A DNA stretch of 64,000 nucleotides, from contig OX597816.1 in the NCBI GenBank assembly GCA_951406725.2, positions 96,534,001-96,598,000 of the forward strand, read 5' to 3'. Position 1 is the stretch's first letter. Each line of letters opens with the position of its first letter. The notes below the pieces were generated by a model. The model did no database searches. It had not been told where the DNA came from and saw only the letters and a program-made list of their open reading frames with translations. The position numbers were made by a program, and so were the translations under genes. Positions 1-60,290 of the stretch are shown piece by piece. This stretch comes from Octopus vulgaris. Taxonomy: Eukaryota.

Positions 1-10
1 ATGCTTACAC

Positions 11-2283
<2,273 letters not shown>

Positions 2284-2285
2284 AT

Positions 2286-2853
2286 ATATATATTGTATAG
2301 AGGGCATTATTACACATAAATGCCTCACACTAAGAGGGACAAAGTCATTACTACCAAAATTACACTAATCATACCTAATGCAGTTCTTCAAAGCAAGACA
2401 TTTAAAAAATGAATTTAGTTCTGTATCACCGTGATTTCACATTTAACTTACGTCTATAATCATCAGCAGAACTGATTCTGAACACATCATAAATAAACCA
2501 CCAACCTTACCTAGCGAAGACGAACAGACATCTATTCACTCTGGCCAAGCAAATGGAATGTTTATAAATCATATATTCGGTAAATGGTGGGCTTTTTCGA
2601 ACTGCATGTCGGATAAGGAAAGTATTTCGGAATAAATTTAACAATTAAGGATAACTTCTTAATAAGGAATCTTAACAAGAAATTATCAGGTAGTTAACGT
2701 GAAAAACCTCATAAGGGAAAAGAATTCGAAAATAATTTTTTTCCTTTTGAACAAATTAATTATATTTATATTGTATAGAGGGCATTATTACACATAAATG
2801 CCTCACACTAAGTGGGACAAAGTCATTACTACCAAAATTACACTAATCATACC
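2286..2853 (-). mobile_element. Penelope/retrozyme-like non-coding unit (478-bp period, terminal direct repeat) carrying a hammerhead ribozyme
   Basis: An ~83-bp segment at 2293 recurs at 2771 (period 478). A hammerhead motif lies inside at 2417-2473. Confidence 0.65.
2417..2473 (-). ncRNA. Type I hammerhead ribozyme
   Basis: AGUUCUG-CUGAUGA-uuauagacguaaguuaaaugu-GAAA-UCAcggUGA-UA-CAGAACU. Perfect 7-bp stem I, intact core, near-palindromic stem III, weak stem II with a GUAA loop. Confidence 0.8.
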
Positions 2854-2887
<34 letters not shown>

Positions 2888-3047
2888 ATATTATAGGGCT
2901 GGCCTGCTAGGTAGCCGGCCAGAATGCTAGAAGAAGATCATCAACAATCAAACTACAAGGGAAATTCTCTAGAGGAATAAATCAGCGAACACCAGAACCA
3001 ACTTTGGCGGGCAGGACATATGAAAAATTAAATAAATAACAGACTTA

Positions 3048-3123
3048 AATGCATACCTCGGTTTCGGTCTTAACAAAAGAATTACTTGCATAATTCAAGT
3101 GTCCGTGACTTCTTCAGTACATT
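3048..3123 (-). ncRNA. Type I hammerhead ribozyme (array copy 1)
   Basis: AAUGUA-CUGAAGA-aguc...GAAUUAU gcaa GUAAUUC...gacc-GAAA-C cgag G-UA-UGCAUU. Confidence 0.8.
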
Positions 3124-3593
3124 CGGTCCTCGAGATGCAAACCGCAAGACTAACCCCAGCTCTCTGTGTCAAGACAGACACGTGCTTAGTCCTACTGATT
3201 ACATCGGGAATAAAATTTCAAATGTCTTGGTTCTGGCGCGCTGAGAGACTCTTGAAGCGAAGGGCTGCAGTGAATAATTCACTGCGGGTAGTGCTTACAA
3301 CTAGGGAACGTATTTATTTAAATATTTAAAAATTGAGGGAGATAAATTAATATTAATTTTAATATCAATTTAAAACCAGTAGTCCAGCATTCAAAAAATC
3401 TGAGGAGTCAGAGAAAATTCAAATATATGTGTATATTGGCAGGGCTGGCCTGCTAGGTAGCCGGCCAGAATGCTAGAAGAAGATCATCAACGATCAAACT
3501 ACAAGGGAAATTCTCTAGAGGAATAAATCAGCGAACACCAGAACCAACTTTGGCGGGCAGGACATATGAAAAATTAAATAAATAACAGACTTA

Positions 3594-3669
3594 AATGCAT
3601 ACCTCGGTTTCGGTCTTAACAAAAGAATTACTTGCATAATTCAAGTGTCCGTGACTTCTTCAGTACATT
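3594..3669 (-). ncRNA. Type I hammerhead ribozyme (array copy 2)
   Basis: Same motif as copy 1, offset +546. Confidence 0.8.
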
Positions 3670-4139
3670 CGGTCCTCGAGATGCAAACCGCAAGACTAAC
3701 CCCAGCTCTCTGTGTCAAGACAGACACGTGCTTAGTCCTACTGATTACATCGGGAATAAAATTTCAAATGTCTTGGTTCTGGCGCGCTGAGAGACTCTTG
3801 AAGCGAAGGGCTGCAGTGAATAATTCACTGCGGGTAGTGCTTACAACTAGGGAACGTATTTATTTAAATATTTAAAAATTGAGGGAGATAAATTAATATT
3901 AATTTTAATATCAAGTTAAAACCAGTAGTCCAGCATTCAAAAAATCTGAGGAGTGAGAGAAAATTCAAATATATGTGTATATTGGCAGGGCTGGCCTGCT
4001 AGGTAGCCGGCCAGAATGCTAGAAGAAGATCATCAACAATCAAACTACAAGGGAAATTCTCTAGAGGAATAAATCAGCGAACACCAGAACCAACTTTGGC
4101 GGGCAGGACATATGAAAAATTAAATAAATAACAGACTTA

Positions 4140-4215
4140 AATGCATACCTCGGTTTCGGTCTTAACAAAAGAATTACTTGCATAATTCAAGTGTCCGTGA
4201 CTTCTTCAGTACATT
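4140..4215 (-). ncRNA. Type I hammerhead ribozyme (array copy 3)
   Basis: Same motif as copy 1, offset +1092. Confidence 0.8.
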
Positions 4216-4787
4216 CGGTCCTCGAGATGCAAACCGCAAGACTAACCCCAGCTCTCTGTTTCAAGACAGACACGTGCTTAGTCCTACTGATTACATCGGG
4301 AATAAAATTTCAAATGTCTTGGTTCTGGCGCGCTGAGAGACTCTTGAAGCGAAGGGCTGCAGTGAATAATTCACTGCGGGTAGTGCTTACAACTAGGGAA
4401 CGTATTTATTTAAATATTTAAAAATTGAGGGAGATAAATTAATATTAATTTTAATATCAATTTAAAACCAGTAGTCCAGCATTCAAAAAATCTGAGGAGT
4501 CAGAGAAAATTCAAATATATGTGTATATTAGCAGGGCTGGCCTGCTAGGTAGCCGGCCAGAATGCTAGAAGAAGATCATCAACGATCAAACTACAAGGGA
4601 AATTCTCTAGAGGAATAAATCAGCGAACACCAGAACCAACTTTGGCGGGCAGGACATATGAAAAATTAAATAAATAACAGACAAGACATTTGAAATTTTA
4701 TTCCCGATGTAATCAGTAGGACTAAGCACGTGTCTGTCTTGACACAGAGAGCTGGGGTTAGTCTTGCGGTTTGCATCTCGAGGACCG

Positions 4788-4863
4788 AATGTACTGAAGA
4801 AGTCACGGACACTTGAATTATGCAAGTAATTCTTTTGTTAAGACCGAAACCGAGGTATGCATT
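4788..4863 (+). ncRNA. Type I hammerhead ribozyme (inverted block copy 1)
   Basis: CTGAAGA at 4794-4800, GAAA at 4846-4849, GTA at 4855-4857 (predicted cleavage after 4857). Stem I is aatgta/tgcatt. Confidence 0.8.
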
Positions 4864-5333
4864 TAAGTCTGTTATTTATTTAATTTTTCATATGTCCTGC
4901 CCGCCAAAGTTGGTTCTGGTGTTCGCTGATTTATTCCTCTAGAGAATTTCCCTTGTAGTTTGATCGTTGATGATCTTCTTCTAGCATTCAGGCCGGCTAC
5001 CTAGCAGGCCAGCCCTGCCAATATACACATATATTTGAATTTTCTCTCACTCCTCAGATTTTTTGAATGCTGGACTACTGGTTTTAAATTGATATTAAAA
5101 TTAATATTAATTTATCTCCCTCAATTTTTAAATATTTAAATAAATACGTTCCCTAGTTGTAAGCACTACCCGCAGTGAATTATTCACTGCAGCCCTTCGC
5201 TTCAAGAGTCTCTCAGCGCGCCAGAACCAAGACATTTGAAATTTTATTCCCGATGTAATCAGTAGGACTAAGCACGTGTCTGTCTTGACACAGAGAGCTG
5301 GGGTTAGTCTTGCGGTTTGCATCTCGAGGACCG

Positions 5334-5409
5334 AAAGTACTGAAGAAGTCACGGACACTTGAATTATGCAAGTAATTCTTTTGTTAAGACCGAAACCGAG
5401 GTATGCATT
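5334..5409 (+). ncRNA. Type I hammerhead ribozyme (inverted block copy 2)
   Basis: Same motif with one stem I substitution (aaagta). Confidence 0.72.
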
Positions 5410-5669
5410 TAAGTCTGTTATTTATTTAATTTTTCATATGTCCTGCCCGCCAAAGTTGGTTCTGGTGTTCGCTGATTTATTCCTCTAGAGAATTTCCCTT
5501 GTAGTTTGATCGTTGATGATCTTCTTCTAGCATTCTGGCCGGCTACCTAGCAGGCCAGCCCTGCCAATATACACATATATTTGAATTTTCTCTGACTCCT
5601 CAGATTTTTTGAATGCTGGACTACTGGTTTTAAATTGATATTAAAATTAATATTAATTTATCTCCCTCA

Positions 5670-5737
<68 letters not shown>

Positions 5738-5774
5738 GTATATATATATATATATATACATATACATTAGTATA

Positions 5775-5890
<116 letters not shown>

Positions 5891-6121
5891 GAGAGAGAGA
5901 ATGGGGGGCTATGAAAGGTAATGGTGTCAGTAAGACCCAAAGGTGTCAGGTAATGCTGAGTGAGTGCTATGAATAGACCATAGTTAAGCTCCAGGTTCAG
6001 TGATTATGCGAATAGGGAGTCCACCTTATGCCATATATCAGCGTGTGTATATATAAAAAAGTTTTTCAGAATGAGATAAAAAACAAAGGCTGAGGGGATT
6101 TTAGAACATTTATAAGTAGAA

Positions 6122-6170
6122 TATCTTACGGCTGTTTCCAGGATATTTATTATATCCCTTCATAGGAGAC
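6122..6170 (-). ncRNA. Degenerate hammerhead ribozyme
   Basis: Damaged core (ccUAUGA), stem II ggauau/auaucc, then GAAAC agcc GUA aga. Confidence 0.45.
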
Positions 6171-6421
6171 GGTATATATATACATTCAATTTTTAGGGAT
6201 TAATCGATATGCGGGTATTCTATTTCAGATAATACAAAAAGTAACCTAATAAGCATATCTGAAAGTAAACTCATGGTATCAGTTTGCACATCACGAAATA
6301 ATACTTAAAGTATATAACGAAAATTACCAGCAGGATATATATTATACTTTATGACACAACCTGTTCCAAGAATCAAACTCACTACCTCGTAATTTGTGTG
6401 CATGTGTGTGTGTATGTGTGT

Positions 6422-6458
<37 letters not shown>

Positions 6459-6677
6459 CACGTGTGTGTGTGTATGTACGTGTGTGTGCGTGTGTGTACA
6501 GCGTAGCATGATACAAGAGTTACAGTTTATCAAAGAGGCTTCCACAAATCACTAACCAACTTCACTACGTTTATTTGACTGCGTGATATATAGATTCCAC
6601 CTTCATATGAAATACAAGAGGGCAAGTGTTAAGGGCATTATTTATATGGAAAATGAAACACGAAAATAAAGAAACAT

Positions 6678-6995
6678 GTTGTAAATGGCACTCCGTCGGT
6701 TACGACGGTGATGATTCCCGTTGATCCGAACAACGGAACAAGCCGCGCTTGAAATTAACTTGCAAGTGGCTGAGCATCTCATGCGTACTTTTAACGTAGT
6801 TCGCGGGGAGATTCAGAGTGACACTGAATGTGACAAGGCTGGCCCTTTGAATTACAGGTGCTACTCATTTTTGTCAGCTGGCTAAACTGGAGCAATGGGA
6901 AATAAAGTGTCTTGCCCAAGCACACAACGCGTCTCCAGTTTTCGAACTCACAATCATGAGCCGATTACCTTAACCACTAAGTCACGCGCCTTCAC
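6678..6995 (-). mobile_element. tRNA-derived SINE
   Basis: Minus strand: gaaggcgcgtgacttagtggttaagg (A box) ... gagttcgaaa (B box) ... ttgggcaagacacttta. Confidence 0.7.
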
Positions 6996-7959
6996 AAAGA
7001 AACATCTATTAAGCTTTGAATAAAAACATGATTTTTGTGCATTCATTTACTATGTTTTGTATTTGTAATTGTCTGTAAAATATTCTTCTAGAGATTCTCA
7101 TTTCCTCCACACTAAATAATTATTTTAAAGAATATAAATATTCTTCAATTGTCTTAGATACTTAGTGGCATAGATACTTCGGAAGATTCCTTAATATTTG
7201 ATACAATTTTCCCATGCAGTTTTATAATTGGAAAACATGGATTTGAATAAATGTTTGAATTTTAACGATAATTTGATAATATGGATGTACTCTTTTTCGT
7301 GAAGTTGCAATGTAATCTGCATGCAATCGTTTTGGAATATATCTTTTAACCAATGATGTATGATTTATTTTAAACTTACTTCAGATGCCGTTATTATATT
7401 TGTTGTCATTTTTCTTCCTTTCCTTTAATTGTTCTAACAATTGTTCCGTGAATATTAAACTGTTTCGCAATTTCCGTCAAATCTTTTCGCATTTGAAATT
7501 TGATTAATATTTCAATTTTCATTTCTGAAGAAATCGACTTTCCTGTCCAGTTTGGTTTGACATTTGAAAATAAAATTTAATTTCGGAAATATGTAATAGA
7601 AAATAAATATAACTTGAGTGCTAACTTAACATGTGGTGTTCCGCTTTGCCATAAAAGTGAGAGAGAAGTAAAATGTTAGATAGATATACACAAAAACAAA
7701 AATGCAAATGACGAAACGACGAGTTGACGTCTCTAAATGACATTTGTAAATTTAGAAGCAAATCGACAAAAACAGAAAGCATGCTGAAGTAAAAGCGTGC
7801 AAGATAAGAACTATATAATTTGAGTGACAAGTATACATACATACATACATACATACATACATGCATGCATGCATACATACATACATACATACATACATAC
7901 ATACATACATACATACATACATACATACATACATACATAAATACATACGTACATACATA

Positions 7960-8480
7960 CCGTAAATCCTCGAGTATAGTCAGCATTTTCCCCCAAATTC
8001 AAGGGTCAAAATCCCTAGTGCGTACTATATGCGAGGTTAAAAATGAAAACTTATTTTTTAAGCAATGTTTGTGTCTCTATTTGCTGCTCGGCAATGTTTA
8101 TTCAGGCGCATTTTGTGAGGTTAGGCGCGAATATACCTTAAGCTAAGCCTGAAAGCAATGAAGTCATGAAAGAATCATTCATAACTTGTAGTAAGCAACA
8201 TTTATTTAAACACAAATATTCAGAACACAGAATAACATATAGCAATAAGAATTTGCAAACATATTTACATTCCCATATAACAGTTAAGAACATCACCATT
8301 ATTGTATTACGCATGCGCGGAAGTGTTTGTTCGACTAGGTGCTGCTGGTTTAATTACGCACGACTCAAGTTAAAGAAGGAGTGCGTATTATACACAAGAT
8401 TTAGGTTTTTCAGAGGTACAGCCCCCTAAAAATTCCCTGCGTATTATACTCAAGGGCAGACTATACTCGAGGATTTACGG
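7960..8480. mobile_element. MITE with ~22-bp TIRs and TA target duplication (Tc1/mariner-pogo type)
   Basis: TA|CCGTAAATCCTCGAGTATAGTC ... GACTATACTCGAGGATTTACGG|TA, non-coding, inserted in (CATA)n. Confidence 0.85.
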
Positions 8481-8504
8481 TACATACATACATAGACAAA
8501 TACC

Positions 8505-9494
8505 ACGCTATATATTTTGGGAAGAAAGCTCCGGATTTTACCTACTTCCTCGACAACACTAATATTAATGTTTACTTTTCAACAGAACCTAGGCAATGCT
8601 TTGAATAACATTCTGCTGTTCTGCGCTAGACGAACCACATTTCTATAATCGTCAAGAAGACCCAGTAACCTTTTCCTTTTGGTAAGAAATAGACCAGAAT
8701 GACACCTTGAGCATTTCAAAAGACAGTCGCCATGATTTTTCCAGCTGACTTTGGTCGTCTTGAACTTTTTCGGTATTGGTGACGTAGAGTGGCGCCATTC
8801 CATTGCCTGCCTTTTTGATTCCGGTTTACATAATGATGAACCCATGTTTCATCACCTGTTATGAGCTTTCGAAAGAAGGTGTTGTCTCTTTGACTTTGTT
8901 CGAGAAGTTCAGTGCAGGCATTGACCCTGTTAGTCTTGCGTTTGGTAGTCAGCTCTCTCTGTACCCAACGGGCATACACTTTTGAAAAACCAAGTGATTC
9001 GACAATGTCGTAAGCACTTCTATGGCTCACTTCAAGGTTTTCTGCCAACTCATCAAGAGATATGCGCTGTACTCTATGATCAGAGCATCTGGTTTGGCTT
9101 TATTGGCAGGGTTCACAGAAGCGGACGACCAGAACGGGGTTTATCGGCTACACTCACAGTTCCCACCTTTTCATCTTTCAGACGACGGACCCATCTGCAT
9201 ACATTGCTAAAATCTAGAGTATTGTCCTCAAAGACATTTTGTAATCTTCGGTGAATGTTCAGAGGGGTTTCCCCTCAGCAACAAGAAATCCAATCACTGC
9301 TCTTTGTTTTTAATGTAACTCTAAGGCGGCAGCCATTTTGAATTTTCCTTACCAGTCTAAACACCTGAAAAGTGAGAAACATATTTCAGAACGTAAATGA
9401 TATAAACATTTATAAATGGGAAAATTTTCAGTTATTTTTATCAAAAACATCACATGAAATAAAGAAAATGGCATTACTTTTTGACCCACCTTCG
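8505..9494 (-). mobile_element. Decayed mariner transposon
   Basis: ORF fragments with WVQRELT, ITGDETWVHHY and KSAGKIMATVF. TIR-like TA-CGAAGGTGGGTCAAAAAGTAATGC at 9496-9471. Confidence 0.88.
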
Positions 9495-9498
9495 TATA

Positions 9499-9530
<32 letters not shown>

Positions 9531-9579
9531 CACACATACATATATATATATACATATATATATATAAATACATACATGC

Positions 9580-9638
<59 letters not shown>

Positions 9639-9759
9639 TACATATAGAGAGAGAGAATGATGTGCTATCGTAATTTAATATTCTGATGAAGATCGTGGTC
9701 AACGACAAAACAGTTATGGTTTTTCCTTCGCCTTTTCTTAGTAGCAATCACGCATCAAA

Positions 9760-11000
9760 AGCCGAAAGTTTGTGACTTATACGTCATCAAACATATCTCT
9801 TCGTCTTTAATTATTCTTTAACTTCAAAAATGGAATTTGACACCCATCAGTTTTTCACATGAAAGTTTAAATGGATTTCGTACTAAATCCAACTTCTCGT
9901 CTTGGAATTATTGATAACATCGGCCAAATTCATTCCCAGCGCTGTCAGATGCTGACAAATTTCCTTTTATGCAAATTCTCGATGCTCTCGGCGTTCACCG
10001 ACAGTCCCAAGAAATGACATTTTTCAAACTTATCAATATTTTCATTTTATTCCGACCTTTTTTCTTCATACCGTCTTCCAGTTTGCTCATCATAGCTTTT
10101 AAAATATGAATGAATTTTCGGATGTTTGTGCCTTTTCTTTTCATCTAAAGATTCAGTTGATCGAAAATGCCAGCTAAATAAGCGAAGCGCATGAACCCTT
10201 CCTCATCATTCAATCAGGCTAGACATTGTATCATATCCTAAACTTCAAACATGTTTGAATTCGCTTCTAGCATCTTATTTCGTACATTACCTCTTTAAAC
10301 TACAAAACATTTGTATGGAAAAGGAGTAGATGGTGGTTTGCGAAATAGATTGGAAAATTCTATCAGTTTCACTAAAATACAGTGTTGCTCGAAAGACGGT
10401 CAACGATATAGCTTTTGAGATCAAGGATCATGTGTGGGAGATGAAGTGACAACATTTTACTTATTTTCAACTGTGAGATGAGAGCGTTGTTTTTAACATT
10501 ATTCTTAACTTGAAATTGTTTGATCTCAAATTCTCTCTGGAAGTGTTTTAAGGCCAATGTCTGAAGATATATCCTACAATGAATTGTTGTTTCTTTTTTT
10601 TATTTCAGGGCTCAATTTTTCGCATAAACATTAAATCTACTTTTTGTTCCCAACACCATCTCTACAATATCCACAGATTCCATGAAAAATGTAACATTTC
10701 TTTCAATAGCTGCGGTCTTGATAGGTATTAAATTAATTGATAGTAGAATAAATAAACCTGCATGAGGCTTTTTTTGCAAAGAGGAATTGGAAACACAATT
10801 CCATATCAGCCGATTCATAAAATTCAGTTGAAAATAAGTAAAATGTTGTCACTTGATCTCCCACACATGACCCTTGATCTCAAATGCTATATCGTTGACC
10901 GTCTTTCGAGCAACACTGTATTTTAGTGAAACTGATAGAATTTTCCAATTTATTTCGCAATGTAATTTCCAGGTTTCACAAACAAGAACCGTGATCAAAG
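9760..11000 (-). pseudogene. Decayed hAT (Buster/Charlie-like) transposase with an internal inverted duplication
   Basis: Minus-strand peptide remnants MRFAYLAGIFDQLNL, KGTNIRKFIHILKAMMSKLE and VNDIAFEIK resemble hAT transposase motifs. 10338-10472 is an inverted copy of 10826-10960. Confidence 0.6.
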
Positions 11001-12162
11001 TTTCCCAGTCTCTCCAGGTGCAGGTGTATTTTTTTTATCTTTCTTATTTGAAATCTCCTGTACTCAGAAGCAATTATACTTAAACACCTTTAGGCTTACT
11101 TTTTTCCTTAAATTAGTGTAGAAGATTAACATGGCAAACTTTGCTTAAACTTATTTGGTTTCATAGAATAATTTGACAAAACTTGTCTACACATAATACA
11201 CTGAGTCCTTTCCTCTCCTTTGTGGCTGATAGATATGAACCAATACTAAATATATTATAAATAGCAACGTCTTCTGTTGATATTCATGACCGACTGAAAA
11301 TTATGAAAACAAAGTGCTTAACGATATCTATATTGAAGTTTTTTTTTAAAGTTACATAGTTATATTTTAATTTGTGGATATAATTGAAATATATCTACAA
11401 CTTAAGATAAACAAAAATATTTGTCCTTATTTTTAATTTAATCTACGTCTTTTAACAGACTATAGAGAATTCGGAGATTACATTAAATGGAAGTAAATTT
11501 CTACAGATTGCACAAAATCTATAGGATATCAGACTTTATTGAATATTGGACTCAGTTGTCTCTTGAAACCTATAAATACCAGGTTGACTAAATTCTCTGG
11601 CAGAAAACCCATGATGTATGTTGAAATCCTTGGAATATTGTTAAGTTAAATTTTGTGCGACTGTGCGTGAAATTCTCATTTTCTTCTTTGGAGGAAGGGC
11701 GGTTGCATCAAGAGGAACAGTATTTATAAAGAATATATTAACATCGATAGCTTAGGCTAGATATAGGGAAACGTATTGAGGATCTTGTAATGAGACAGAT
11801 GTACCGAGATAGCCAGGAGGGTGGATAACTAAACGCGAAGAGAAGTAGGTAGGTTAATCAGAAGCAAAGAAGTGTAGCTTGAGTTGGGTAGAGGTACAGA
11901 CAAACGAGGAAATAACCAAATGGTGATAGAGGAAGCGAAGAAGTAAGAGGAAACAAAGAAAGGAAACAAGAAGGTAGGACTGCTAATAGGTTGAGGTCAG
12001 CCGATGTAAGATTCTGCTCTCTCCAAACAAGTATTATAAATTAAATCAATGCGAAAGATAGGGTGAGCGGAGATGATCCAACGAAATACTTTTTAATTAC
12101 ATTTATAAAAATAACGTTGCTGTTCTGGGTTCGATATCCGCCATGGGAACTTGCTATTTTAT

Positions 12163-43810: not shown

Positions 43811-44951
43811 TATTAGATTGTCAAAAAGGTTCTTGCGGGATTTTTAATTTTGGTTTTAAATGATGTATTTTCAAATTAATTTTCGTTAAATTACTTTTGA
43901 CTTTATTTATCATTCTAAATTCCGTTTGTCGTTCTATCTAATCGTGCTACTTCTTTTTGAATAATTCGGCCATTTTTTCCGGAACGTTGAATACAACATG
44001 GGCAAAAGGCAAATTCGCACAATTTTCTTATTCTAGTTCAAGCTAGGCCGAAAAGCTGCTGAAACAGCTCACGATATCAACGATGCGTTTGACCCAGGAA
44101 CCACTAATGAACGTACAGCACAATGGTGGTTCAAGAAATTTCGTAGCGGTGACGTGAGTCTTGAAGAGGATAAGTGTAGTGGTCGGCCATCGGATGTTGG
44201 CAACGATCATCTAAGAGCCTTAGTCAACGCCAATCCATGCACAACTGTTCGAGAGCTTGCTTCTGAATTAGACGTAACGTATAAAACAATTTCCAACCAC
44301 TCGGAAAAGATTGGAAAAAAAAATTACTTGAGTAATGGGTGCCGCACGAATTAAACACCCCCATACACACACACGCACACACACACACACACACACACAC
44401 GCCGTTTTGAAATGTCGTCTTCCCTTCTGTTACGCAAGAACGACTCGTTCTATCACAGCTTTTTGGATCCGGGCGAAACCATTACAGCGGAAAAGTACTG
44501 TCAACAAATGGATGAAATGCATAAGGAACTCAGACAACAACAGCCAGCATTGGTCAATACAAAAGGACCAATTCTTCTCCACGACAACGCTCGGCCGCAT
44601 GTCGAACTAACCCTGCAGAAATTGAACGAATTGGGCTACGAAACTTTGCCTCATCCGCCATACTCACCAAACCTCTCGCCTACCGACTACCACTTTTTCA
44701 AGCATCTCGACAACTTCCTGCGTGAGGAATGCTTAAAAAGCCAAGACGATGCCAAATACGCTTCAACGACTTCATCGCCACCAGTACGCAGAATTTTTAC
44801 GCTACTGGCATAAATAGACTTGTTTCACGTTTTCAAAAGTGTGTTGACTCTGCTGGTGTTAATTTCGATTAATAAAGTTTTGTTTGAGCCGAGATATGTG
44901 CATCTGAATTTAAAGATTAAAAACCACAAGAACTTTCTTGACAACCTAATA
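43811..44951 (+). mobile_element. Mariner transposon (Hsmar1/SETMAR-like), internally deleted and frameshifted
   Basis: TIRs tattagattgtcaaaaaggttcttgcgg / ccacaagaactttcttgacaacctaata. Transposase from ATG 43998: MGKRQIRTIFLF...WWFKKFRSGD..., HDNARPH, HPPYSPNLSPTDYHFF. Confidence 0.93.
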
Positions 44952-46514: not shown

Positions 46515-48400
46515 TGATCTCTTATTTCCTCAGGTTGGGTGGGAGTTATATCACCACTCCTATATGTGCCTTTCTCCCAACTTTTGGGCCATTTGGTGTA
46601 TGAGGGAGTTTGACACCACAGCCTTCGTCTGTACCTCATGTTGGGCCGTTAGTTCAGCCAGTATTGTGGAGATGAAGATGTCTAGTTCCTTTCTGAAGAC
46701 ATCTACGTCCACATTATGTAAATTTCTTAATCTTTTGTGGCAGATCATTGAAGAGCTGTGGACCTTCGAACCCTAGACTATTGCGGTACCTGGTCCTGAA
46801 TTTAGATGGAGTGGAAGGTACCTTTGGTACAATATAATGACGTCCAGTTCTGGCATTTGTATGATATTCTATGCCGAAATTAGGTACTAGCCCTTCTAGA
46901 GTTTTCCATATGTAGATTATAGCATATATGTAGATTATTGCATATCTTCCACCTTTCTGGGTAGGTCATATAATACTTTCTTTCAGTTTTTTGGGAAGTT
47001 TACCGTTTGTAAGAAATCTCTGGAAAACTATCTGCTTACAATACTTCAGGAGAATAGCTGAGAAGCCACAGGGATCAGTTGCTGAGCTTCAGCTCATTTC
47101 ATCTACGGCCGCTGTTACATCTGTCTCTTCAGTGTTGATGTAACTCATGGTTGGTGCCGTCTTCTTTAGGGATACAATATTAAAGAAATAAGTCGGTTTT
47201 TTTTTTTATCTGCATGTGTACCACTGGGGAGATGAAAAACACTTCTAAATTGTTCACTGAATACATCACTTATCATTTCTGGGTCATTCCCTTAGAATAA
47301 TTATTCTGGCCGTTTCCTTTGCAAATTCGTTGAAAGTTTTAGGACTTGTTTTTATGCTTTCCACAGCTCTGTTCTCTCTTTCTTTCTCTCTCTCTCTCTC
47401 CCTCCCCCTCTCTCTCTGATCTGCTCTGCTCTTTCCTTTTCATGAAAGAGTTTGATCTTTCTTTCGATTTCTAGGAGTGTCCGTATTAAAATAGACTTCT
47501 CCCTATCCTTTAGTTACCTAGTCAACCGGTTCTGAGACCTTTGGCCTACGTCTCATAAGGATTTTTCTGTCCCAGAGAATCTTGTTTGTCGGTATATTGG
47601 CCTTTCATTCCTGAGTGCACTGTTGACATAAACTGATAGAGTTTCAAGTCAATGACTTGCATACAAATAATGTTGGACCAGTTTTGTTTATGGATCTCTT
47701 TGCGGATTGATTCCGATTTTATTTTATTGAAATTCAGGTTGGATATGGCTTGAGTCCCCTTGGTAGGGTAGATCCCAGTAGTTCGCTTAGGAACATACAT
47801 AGTTAGTTCAACAATGTCACACTCACATTATGGATAACGTCCAGATTATTTGTGAAGCAGAAGTCCAAGATGTCGTTTCTCTTGGTTGGCGTATCACTTG
47901 TTCCATGAATAGCAGAGAAAGTTCCAGTAATAACTCTACATGCTTTTGTTCATGCAGTGACATCCCAGAGAGGATGTGGCCTTTCAGCCATTTAACATTT
48001 GGGAGGTCGAAGTCAGCCAGGAGGAGTATGTTGATGTGCTGTTCTAGATTTGTTAATACTTCTTCTATGTGGCTGAGGTTATCCTCACATTTTCCATCAT
48101 ACTTCATGGTATTTGGTGGAGGGTATGTTGAGCATACAACTCGACCAAATTGCTTTATATGTTGCAGAGTGAATTTATATGTCGCAGAGTGAATTTGAAT
48201 GCGACAGTAATACAAGTGGTATAACATTTTCACGGATGTACATAGCAACAACACTTCTTTCTCTTCTGTGTATGTGAAATACAACATACCCTGGGATGTG
48301 TACATCTGCATGTGTTACATTAGAGGATTCAGTGAATGTCATACATATTGGTTGATTGCATGCAAGATTTTTTAGTTGCCGGGTTTTAGCTGGCTTCCGA
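46515..48400 (-). pseudogene. CR1-type LINE remnant (APE endonuclease, linker, deleted RT, 3' end)
   Basis: TYPPPN, ILLLADFDLPNVKW, MEQVIRQP, LRNLHNVDVDVFRKELDIF. Confidence 0.8.
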
Positions 48401-48456
48401 TGTTCAATAGGGATACAGGTGCAACATCTGGTGTCAGTAGTGGCGATCCTGCATCC

Positions 48457-48500
<44 letters not shown>

Positions 48501-48970
48501 ATGTGTGTGTGTGTGTGCGTGTGTGTGTATGCGCGCGCATGTATACACAGACACACACACATACACACGCACGCGTCAATATACACCTAGACAGTAATAT
48601 TGATGCAGAAGGGTAAAACAAATCACAAAAAATGAGTATGTGAATATTTTCGTTGATATTTAGCAGGAGCAACAAAGTGATTGAAGGACCAAGAGTTCCG
48701 TGCGTTACCACTTGAACTCTAAGTGATAATGCACTAAATTCTCGGACCTTGAGTCAGTCTATTACTGTTGAATATTAATGAAAATACACATATAAATATA
48801 TGTATGATATATATATGTATATATATACACTCACACATAACCACGCACAAACATGGCACACACACACGTGTTAGATACATATTTACATATTTATGTGCAT
48901 ATACATATATATATATATATATATATATCCATATATATATGTATGTATATATGTATAAGTATACATGAAA

Positions 48971-56472: not shown

Positions 56473-59400
56473 GGGTAGTGGGTAGCGATTTTCTTCACTA
56501 CTTCAGGGAGTGACGACCCTGCCTGACACGAGTTCCGGGCTCAGCTGCCTCCGGCTGAGAGTACCCGGTATGGGTTACGGAAAGGAGACAACCTTCAAAG
56601 AATTCCGGAGTGGAGCCCGAAGGCGGTTTAGTGTTCGACTCGACACTGCACCCCAAGCTGGAGCCAAACGTAATGCTCTGCACTCCTTTGGACTACTTCA
56701 GCAAGGTCGAGAGAGCAATATGATATAATCCTGACGATTGGGCTACCCTGGATTTTCTTAGTTCTAGTCCAGGCCTGCGAAAAACTAAAAACGACATTTC
56801 AGTGCTGCTGAAAAAATTACAGAAAAAGCACGGGAGGTAGCAGTCACGAGTGATATGTTCATTCAGATTGGCGTAAGATATGGGCGCTAAGGGTTACCTT
56901 TGACGGTGGGAGGGACCCCCGTACCCCATAGGTTAGCTACTGCCCACCTCAAGCTGTCAATAAGTTGCTGACCAGCCACAGGCCGACTGCTTCATTGAGT
57001 GCTTGGAGCTAAGAGTTTGACTTGAAAAACGGCCTGAAACCTCTGCACCAGGCAAACAACTAAAAGACAAGAAACCACCAGTCCTGCGGTTAGCAAGCTG
57101 AAATGTCAGGACCATGTGCCCAGGCATATCTGATGACCTACTCAAGGCTGAAGACACAAGAAAGACGGCCATCATTGACCGTGAACTAAAGAGGCTGAAC
57201 ATGAACATTGCTGGACTGCAGGAGACAAGACTCCCCCCAAACGGCAAACTCAAAGAACAGGATTTCACCTTCTTTTGGCAGGGAAGCGATCCAGAAGAAC
57301 CTTGTCAGCATGGTGTTGGCTTTGCAGAGAAAAGCCCATTACTCTCCTCAATGGAACCGCCATCAGGAGGCACTGAGCGTATCCTCTCACTGCGCTTCTC
57401 GACCTCATCTGGCTCAGTATATCTACTGAGCATCTATGCTCCCACTCTCTACAGCTCAGAGGGAACCAAAGACCAGTTCTACAAAGATCTCAGCTGTGTC
57501 ATTAGAAACATACCAACCGATGAAAACATCTACCTTCTAGGAGATTTTAACGCTCGCGTGGGATCTGACCATGACTCGTGGCCCATTTGTGTTGGACAAT
57601 TTGGTATAACCAACATGAATGGCAATGGTCAGAGACTACTTGAATTTTGCACATACCATAACCTGTGCATTTTCAACACATTCTTTGCCAACAAGCCATC
57701 CCACAAGGCATCTCACCACTGGCATCAGTTGGATCTCATCATTACACGAAGATCCTTTCTAAATTCTGTTCAACTGACCCGTAGTTACCACAGCGCGGAT
57801 TGTGACACAGATCATTCACTAATAAGAAGCAGGGTGAGGATTCTGCCTAAAAAAGTCCATCACTCCAAGTAAATGGGCCGACCACGCATTAACACTACCA
57901 GAACCTTGGACCCTACACTGCGAAAATGTTTTGCTGTTTCTATGAAGGTTGCCCTCAGTAGCTGCCCAACCTCCTCTGCTAAAAGTAAGAAGAATTATAT
58001 CTTGGAAGCTTTGTATACCACATCAATAGATACATTCTGCATGAGAGAAAGGCAAAACCCAGATTGGTTCAGTGCTGGACTCTCAGAGCTGGAACCAGTT
58101 ATTGAAGCAAAGCGCGCAGCTCTGATGCAATACAAGATTGATTCTTCTACAAAGTCACTTGAAGAACTCAGAAAGGCAAGAAATAAAACCCAGCTGACTG
58201 CCAGACGCTGTGCAAATAAGTATTAGCAGGAAATCTGTCAGAGTATCCAGTCAGCTGCTGACAGTGGCGACAGCCGTGGGATGTATACCGGTTTGAAGAA
58301 AGTCCTCGGTCCATCCGCAACCAAGTCAGCCCCTCTGAAATCAACTACTGGAGATCTCATCAAGGAACAAAGCAAGCAAATAGATAGATGGGTGGAATAC
58401 TATCAGGATCTCTACTCACGGGAGAACACGGTAACTGAGGCTGTAATCGAGGGTGTCAAAATCTTGCCAGTCATGTGCGAACTTGACAGTCTGCCATCTA
58501 TAGCAGAGCTCACCAAGGCTAATGAATCCCTAGCCAATAACAAGGCTCCGGGAAAAGACCCTCAGAGATCATCCCCTCAGAAATCATCAAAGCCGGCAAA
58601 AACACCGTCCTGCTTCGGCACCTTCATGAGCTTCCGTGCCAGTGCTGGGAAGAGGGTACAGTCCCTCAGGATATGCGGGATGCTAACATCATTACGCTTT
58701 ACAAAAAGAAAAAGATGACCGTGGTGATTGTAACAATTACCGTGGAATATCTCTTCTATGCACTGTTGGAAAGACATTTGCTCGCGTTATCCTGTCCAGG
58801 CTACAACTGCTTGCTTCTCAAATTTATCCAGAATCACAGTGTGGCTTTAGAAGAAGCAGATCAACTATTGACATAATATCCTCCATACGCCATCTTCAGG
58901 AGAAGTCCAGAGGGCAGAAAATGCCATTATATATGGCCTTTGACTTGGTAAGTAGAAAAGTCCTCTTCATCCTGCTCCAAAAAATCGGATCTCCACCAAA
59001 GCTGCTGAGGATCATCAAATTTTTCCATGATGATATACAAGGCACCATTCAGCATAATGGTTCAACATCAACCGCCTTCCAAATAAAAAACAGGGTAAAG
59101 CAAGGTTGTGTCCTTGCTCCTACATTATTTGGCATCTTCTTCTCGCTGCTGCTGTCACATGCCTTTGAGACATCAGATGATGGTTGGAGTGTTTCTGCTC
59201 AGGAGAAGCGACAGGAAACTGTTCAATCTCTCGCATGTGCGTGCCAAGACCAAAATCAGAAGCATCCTGATCAAGGAGATGCTATTTGCTGATGATGCCG
59301 CTCTGGTATCACACGTAGAAGAAGCCCTGCAAAGGCTCATTAACTGTTTTAGCAAGCATGTAGCGACTTTGGCTTAGTTATCAGCCTCGAGAAGACCAGC

Positions 59401-60290
59401 ATCATGGGTCAGGCTACATCGGACATCCCAAACACATATTGGAGACCACAGACTACAGGAGGTGGAGAAGTTTCCCTATCTTGGCTCTACCCTCACCTAC
59501 AACCTATCCCTTGATGCTGAGCTCAATATACGCATTGGCAAGGCAGCTGCTGTGAAGGCCCAATTCTCCAAACGCGCATGGGACAACAATAAGCTGACCA
59601 AGACCACAAAAATGAAGACTTACCAGGTATGTGTACTTAGCACTCTACTGTATGGAAGTGAGACTTGGACGCCATACACACGCCAAGATCGTCACTTAAA
59701 TATCTTTCACCTGCGCTGCATCCGGAAAATCCTTGGTATCAAATGGCAGAATCATGTCCCCAACAAAGATGTCCTCAAGCAAGCAGGAATACCAAGCATG
59801 TTTGCATTCCTCACACAAAGACGTATGAGATGGCTTGGACAAGTTAGCCGTATGGAAGATGGCAGAATCCCCAAGGACATACTCTACGGAGAGCTTGCTA
59901 GGGGCATTAGCTCTGTAGGAAGACTATTCTTACGATACAAAGATGTTTGCAAAAGGGACATGAAGGCCTGCGACATAAATATTAACAGCTGGGAAGCAGT
60001 TGCCACCAACCGTGGAGTTTGGCGACGTACTGTAAAAGAGGGAACATAGTGGAGTGACAGAAGGAGATAGGAGAAATGGAAAGACAGGAAAAGACGTCAA
60101 CAAGAAACTATGACATTACATCCAGCCAGGCAAAGTCTTAGCTACATTTGCGGCACCTGCCAGAAGGAATGTTTGTCCAGGATAAGACTACACAGCCACA
60201 GCAGGAGATGTAATAGTACATAAAATGTAAAAGCCAGACTAGATTATTTTATGCGCAATTCCATTGTCTCCTGAGACAAAAAGGATGCCA

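Follow-up and report, generated by a model that had tools for sequence, protein, structure and literature searches.

The 64-kb window, by which we mean the whole stretch of DNA analysed, contains at 2880–5673 an array of 546-bp units in two arms of opposite orientation, 3.3 units in one and 1.8 in the other. The left arm (2880–4682, 1806 bp, minus strand in the sense of the ribozyme) is built of units that are 99% identical to one another, and has its 5' end at unit position 10 and its outer 3' end at a position termed site A. The right arm (4682–5673, plus strand, ~992 bp) is reversed relative to the left and has its outer 3' end at a second position, site B. The two arms are 99% complementary over 1011 nt, and when read in the ribozyme sense both diverge from 4682, a head-to-head junction at which unit position 10 is joined to unit position 371 with a 1-nt overlap. 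Two (TA)n tracts detected with TRF bracket the array, the left target tract at 2854–2881 and the right one at 5673–5886. The site A end (2880–2897, minus strand, unit positions ~158–177) belongs to a genome-wide cluster of 3' ends and shows small sequence changes beside the TA tract, and the site B end (5661–5692, plus strand, unit positions ~258–289) is AT-rich and grades into the TA tract. The unit has a GC content of 39% and occurs as two types in the array, with variants at unit positions 108 and 191 that alternate; the 191 variant is present in both arms, in register. No open frame inside the units is longer than 97 aa, and a tblastn comparison of the unit with proteins of Penelope-like elements (PLEs) returned no match. 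An earlier note, made from the sequence alone, had described near-identical tandem and inverted units without credible coding capacity, and the block alignment and the frame and protein comparisons bear this out.

Five type I hammerhead motifs with a CUGAAGA core lie at the five complete cut sites of the array, the number given in the earlier note, one of them with a stem I mismatch. Three are on the minus strand, at 3047–3124 (core at 3117, predicted cut 3' of 3054), 3593–3670 (core at 3663, predicted cut 3' of 3600) and 4139–4216 (core at 4209, predicted cut 3' of 4146). The plus-strand motif at 4787–4864 combines a 7-bp stem I, the core at 4794–4800, a long stem II and a stem III of 2–3 bp, a layout with which the previously predicted cut after 4857 agrees; the mismatched motif (5333–5410, plus strand, core at 5340, predicted cut after 5403) departs from pairing at 5336. 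When the whole window was searched with a descriptor that demanded the core, GAAA, a closed stem III and a stem I of at least 5 bp, four of these five were recovered, each with a 7-bp stem I, along with one hammerhead of another family at 2466 on the minus strand; none of 20 block-shuffled windows gave a match. The copy at 5340 was missed because a U>A change at 5336 breaks the stem I filter. The CUGANGA core, GAAA, NUH and three stems of a hammerhead are all present, and core variation is common only at the free position. A search with the Rfam hammerhead models, as the earlier note had proposed, gave no match at E ≤ 1 on 1–12000 or at E ≤ 10 on 4760–4900, a miss that is likely owed to the long stem II. 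The hammerhead at 2466 is part of a second, unrelated retrozyme copy directly to the left of the TA tract (2284–2853, minus strand, 1.2 units). That family has a ~480-bp unit and a 5-bp stem III, forms arrays of up to ~7 units with head-to-head arms, and gave 2029 first-look candidates, the best 40 scored being 92–97% identical.

Covariation was assessed in 22 chosen variants from three subfamilies, out of 76 distinct strings. Across these 22 variants the hammerhead structure pairs 95.9% of alignment cells, a value reached by none of 500 shuffles in a control that ignores relatedness and in which two of five measures were not exceeded. Changes on both sides occur at three of 24 pairs (A-U/U-A/C-G in stem I, U-A/C-G in stem II, and the base of stem II), and these compensatory changes suggest a ribozyme fold kept under selection, with the same reservation about relatedness. 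At its base, stem II of the window copies has an A·C mismatch, or an extra A with a bulge, rather than a clean pair; the G10.1-C11.1 position in the window register is unpaired in 13 of 22 rows, A-U in six and G-C in three. An extra nucleotide after position 9 is described for PLE hammerheads (PMC4209133), and such a nucleotide together with a bulge would restore a G-C pair at the base of stem II. Stem III is near-palindromic and can pair between two copies as a 12-nt duplex (−8.6 kcal/mol). The complete cut-to-cut monomer of 546 nt (4858–5403, plus strand) folds at −141 kcal/mol (z −3.26), surpassing 100 of 100 shuffles.

The 546-bp repeat is a dispersed, young and non-coding family present at hundreds of places in the genome. 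A monomer search of the 2.8-Gb genome yielded 1502 first-look candidates, the best 40 scored being 95–99% identical, and exact matches numbered 270 for a 33-nt ribozyme pattern and 706 for a 20-nt pattern, with none for the reversed controls. The 160 distinct insertions mapped here combine top-scoring hits with position-ordered pattern lists and are not a random sample; the position-ordered set (63 loci) takes in all but one of the 64 on the lists for contigs C1–C4. Five loci (L169, L170, L187, L226 and L253) were excluded because they repeated another locus or were segmental duplicates, L182 and L196 are possibly one duplicated event, and eight loci were hand-corrected from their flanks. Arrays are short, with up to ~4 units seen, and mostly two-armed, and the ends that were read lie mostly within (TA)n tracts, with a minority having other flanks. 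These dispersed copies, which a genome-wide count had been expected to reveal, together with the insertion footprint and the compensatory changes, support the earlier reading of a recent, non-autonomous hammerhead retroelement of the retrozyme/Penelope kind. Copies at 88% identity were considered as a possible PLE 3' end and proved to be sister retrozyme subfamilies.

The outer 3' ends of the family fall at either of two places in the unit, site A (unit positions 158–180) or site B (258–292). In the position-ordered set 43 of the 63 insertions are inverted, every one head-to-head, and these join A to B in 34 cases, B to another end in eight, B to B in one and A to A in none (binomial p 1e-9). 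Across all 160 insertions 97 are inverted (78 A+B, 14 B+other, three A+other, two B+B and no A+A), and A+B is found in 78 of the 80 inverted insertions that are scorable. The 63 direct insertions end at A in 17 cases and at B in 46. Inversion is the norm of this family and its usual insertion footprint, a point missed in the earlier note, and the insertion in the window is a typical A+B case. A tail of ~105 nt is on one arm, and microhomology to the TA target is seen at each of the two start sites.

For a haplotype test of how the arms are related, the individual units of 40 loci were aligned. At diagnostic sites, opposite arms carry the same allele in 126 of 127 comparisons (58% for random pairs), and divergence is 0.86–0.88% within loci and 2.39% between loci; therefore, each insertion comes from one source haplotype and has undergone little later homogenisation. 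Locus-private alleles (n = 173) are present in one copy in 136 cases, in all copies in 19 and in some copies in two, with 16 at sites covered once. The 19 that are fixed in every unit are spread over 14 of the 40 loci and would fit a bottleneck through a monomer. The window units alternate at positions 108 and 191, a pattern that a monomer circle cannot give; a dimer circle fits all but one base of the window array.

Of 74 arms long enough to include the predicted cut site, 72 read through it, from which it follows that the template was circular or uncleaved, and we give even chances to a circular one. In the position-ordered set 5' ends are not in excess at the cut site (three observed, 1.9 expected), and cleavage is invisible in the DNA. 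Run-off of the cDNA at the ribozyme cut site had been suggested by the top-scoring copies and was rejected on this count; a wider post-hoc window round the cut site gives a mild excess only (23 vs 13). The idea that the cDNA stops once a single round is complete, or where it runs into the other priming site, was not supported, with no excess of such ends in the inverted copies. One hotspot of 5' ends does occur at unit positions 439–445 (4750–4756 in the window, and equivalents), before a G run, with 12 ends against 2.9 expected (scan-corrected p 0.009), which suggests linear templates, a transcription start or an RT stop as possible sources. A transcript that crosses the junction would be expected to fold back on itself, whereas transcripts starting inside an arm would not.

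The array has the sequence hallmarks of an animal non-LTR retrozyme, being composed of tandem, dispersed and non-coding units with a type I hammerhead and a GC content under 45–50%, apparently without an LTR/PBS/PPT organisation. In the portions of two retrozyme studies that bear on this comparison (PMC7229834; 10.64898/2026.07.22.740005), the likeness extends to low-GC tandem units with one hammerhead each, a folded monomer and co-existence with PLEs. Units are given there as 170–400 nt (PMC7229834) and 51–972 bp (10.64898/2026.07.22.740005), and the 546-nt unit, called unusually large in the earlier note, falls inside the wider range. Compared with these animal retrozymes, stem II is much longer and the arrays are short and mostly two-armed. 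The same portions describe neither inverted arms nor fixed priming sites, and present PLE mobilisation and circular templates for retrozymes as proposed, not demonstrated (PMC7229834; 10.64898/2026.07.22.740005).

The footprint also invites comparison with EN+ PLEs, for which the literature describes (TA)n targets, a 5'-truncated copy in inverted orientation at the 5' end, a one-armed extension and two AT-rich internal starts (PMC8557442, PMC3846280, PMC11167929), all features of the family described here. A tail on one inverted PLE arm is already known from such work (PMC3846280, PMC8557442). The retrozyme unit differs in having no RT or endonuclease and a tail of ~105 nt rather than 30–40, and the PAc start is reported as non-homologous, in contrast to the TA microhomology at both retrozyme start sites. 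Another close system is a putative Hydra-clade PLE of the same genome (L298/L319), which is alike in its canonical-core hammerhead, long stem II, GUA site, long tail, TA targets and A+B rule. The distance from cut site to site A is ~60 nt in this PLE and ~170 nt in the retrozyme, and the two share short similarity before site B in related subfamilies but no extended DNA homology. In L1 twin priming both target ends prime cDNA and produce a head-to-head inversion, the second primer landing at variable internal sites and the arms being non-overlapping. In the retrozyme, by comparison, neither site varies, and the two arms frequently represent one and the same stretch of the RNA. The literature, covered mostly through open-access main texts, yielded no statement of obligate two-site pairing or of a Hydra-clade helper, and the supplements of PMC8557442 may list these PLEs; hammerhead, ribozyme and retrozyme are absent from the main text of an octopus repeat annotation (PMC13282606). 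The element class is already known, and it is the footprint that carries the value.

Two autonomous PLE types of this genome follow the same pairing rule. Of 32 Hydra-type loci, 25 are A+B (25 of 25 scorable), two join A to an unscorable end and five are not inverted. For the Neptune-type PLE, among the first 100 matches listed, the tail pattern is on exactly one arm in seven of eight inverted pairs and on neither arm in the eighth. The Hydra-type PLE (L298:5737–8394 and L319, tandem copies) is young and abundant, with an 885-aa frame in L298 and many open frames near 900 aa, a Ser/Asn-rich insert, a long-stem-II hammerhead and a 156-nt tail. Its clade call rests on motifs recognised by eye (RWL, DKT, CxxC, CxH, hammerhead and TA flanks); L298 has no Pfam match, and a CxCX5C linker was not found by eye. 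The Hydra clade is characterised by RWK-like, DKT, CxxC and CxH motifs, a C-terminal EN without CCHH, a canonical hammerhead and a (TA)n target (PMC8557442). The Neptune-type PLE (L081:1244–6500) is also young, with a 479-aa frame that lies ahead of its 781-aa RT/GIY-YIG frame and overlaps it, a 505-bp pseudo-LTR, a hammerhead-like motif found by eye with a U3-A8 core variant, and 801 exact 3'-end matches.

A direct connection to the Hydra type is offered by one chimera (L173/L255, G000:C26:34859728–34860309), in which a Hydra-type arm with its end at site A of that element meets, head-to-head and with no TA between them, a retrozyme arm that ends at site B; it is the sole such chimera found when the 160 loci were compared with seven PLE segments. 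The 97-nt segment leading up to site B matches the Hydra tails of L301, L302 and L304, three related subfamilies, above 299–300 of 300 shuffles. Of the ten Hydra or Neptune tails compared with the site B segment, these three match clearly, and the other six Hydra tails, among them that of the chimera's own subfamily (38 of 300 shuffles as high), and the Neptune tail gave no clear match. No extended DNA homology of the unit to the autonomous PLEs examined was found, and the Neptune-type 781-aa element was rejected as sequence donor on the same ground. No PLE coding continuation or RT/GIY-YIG frame is present in the unit or the 160 copies, the inverted chimera excepted. No autonomous element carrying the unit was seen among 50 GIY-YIG loci, 20 Hydra-type loci and the flanks of the 160 insertions, a set made up of the best candidates of large families (for GIY-YIG, the best 150 of 6136 were scored), and one may exist. 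Taken from sequence comparison, a Hydra-type PLE of the same genome is a slightly favoured candidate for the helper, which would otherwise be a Neptune-type or an unseen family.

The reading we favour, and hold to be quite likely, is a recent insertion of a hammerhead retrozyme family, probably by a PLE enzyme. This enzyme would nick a (TA)n tract on both strands, and each cut end would prime a cDNA on the same source RNA, with site A as the start of one cDNA and site B as that of the other. Both cDNAs would travel round the RNA, which would be circular (or an uncleaved multimer), end at varying positions and anneal by 0–6 nt of microhomology, and the gaps would be filled to give tandem arms in inverted orientation; single-end priming would give a direct array. 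The ribozyme is predicted to cut readthrough transcripts to monomers for circularisation, probably aided by dimers through the near-palindromic stem III. A PLE protein is reported to nick and extend both strands in vitro and to start at two internal sites (PMC11167929).

A cDNA primed at site B alone might instead fold back and copy itself as the inverted arm, which would be joined or trimmed at site A, and ideas of self-priming and EN-resolution have been put forward for PLEs (PMC3846280, PMC8557442). In line with this, all inverted insertions of the position-ordered set have a B end with its partner at A or another upstream site, the A arm is contained in the B arm in 47 of 73 simple A+B retrozyme insertions, junctions at which both arms start at the same position number 9 of 91 (3.5 expected), and the 191 variant is in register in both window arms; 53 of the 73, the window's included, are compatible with fold-back copying. 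However, a copied arm must lie within the arm it was copied from, and this containment fails in 20 of the 73 and, for the Hydra type, in 10 of 24 insertions; in four Hydra-type cases the B arm is little more than the tail, and the arms of one chimera come from two different RNAs. Broken containment means that some members of the family, at the least, require two cDNAs templated by RNA; we infer two-ended priming to be the main route and consider fold-back copying an unlikely one. Still less probable is an origin as solo pseudo-LTR remnants of an autonomous PLE that expanded in place through unequal crossover, a route suggested for vertebrate retrozymes (10.64898/2026.07.22.740005). The unit does resemble in size the 505-bp pseudo-LTR of the local Neptune-type element, and the period-2 variants of the window could stem from later duplication. 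Yet none of the 160 copies continues into PLE coding sequence, the inverted chimera apart; the arrays continue across the unit junction, their 5' ends being free and their 3' ends fixed at new sites; and the 136 private changes in single units point to weak homogenisation after insertion and to units that were alike when inserted. Long TA tracts next to near-identical units in tandem and inverted order make assembly difficult, and palindromic reads or a repeat misjoin might mimic such an array, but the asymmetric A+B layout recurs at 78 loci whose flanks and junctions differ, and the arms are offset rather than mirrored and carry unit-specific variants, which makes an assembly artefact highly improbable.

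Extending two-ended priming further, and more tentatively, PLE insertion itself may be obligately two-ended, with a dimer of the enzyme using a single RNA to prime from both cut strands, at two different fixed sites every time; animal retrozymes would then be circles that hijack this process through a Hydra-clade enzyme, the array being written in one rolling-circle event. We regard this as possible, with the balance somewhat against it. If true, it would explain both the tandem/inverted structure and the one-sided tail of PLEs, and would name a helper for an animal retrozyme. The origin of the tandem/inverted structures of PLEs is called an open question in PMC8557442, and so are, in PMC7229834 and 10.64898/2026.07.22.740005, the enzyme that mobilises animal retrozymes and the template it copies. 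With its RNA small and defined, its two start sites mapped, a quantitative pairing rule common to two autonomous PLEs and a named candidate enzyme, the family makes both questions testable in the in vitro system of PMC11167929.

More hammerhead-like motifs and diverged relatives of the site B segment were encountered in the flanks of L085, L089 and L096 and in L318:4380–4490, L291 and L305, which suggests further families. Elsewhere in the window, 136-nt inverted repeats at 10338–10473 and 10825–10960 are 97% complementary, spaced by 351 nt and MITE-like. Broken frames at 57102–60049, 44355–44813 and 47823–48753 carry motifs from which we take them to be LINE-like, mariner-like and other non-LTR reading frames.
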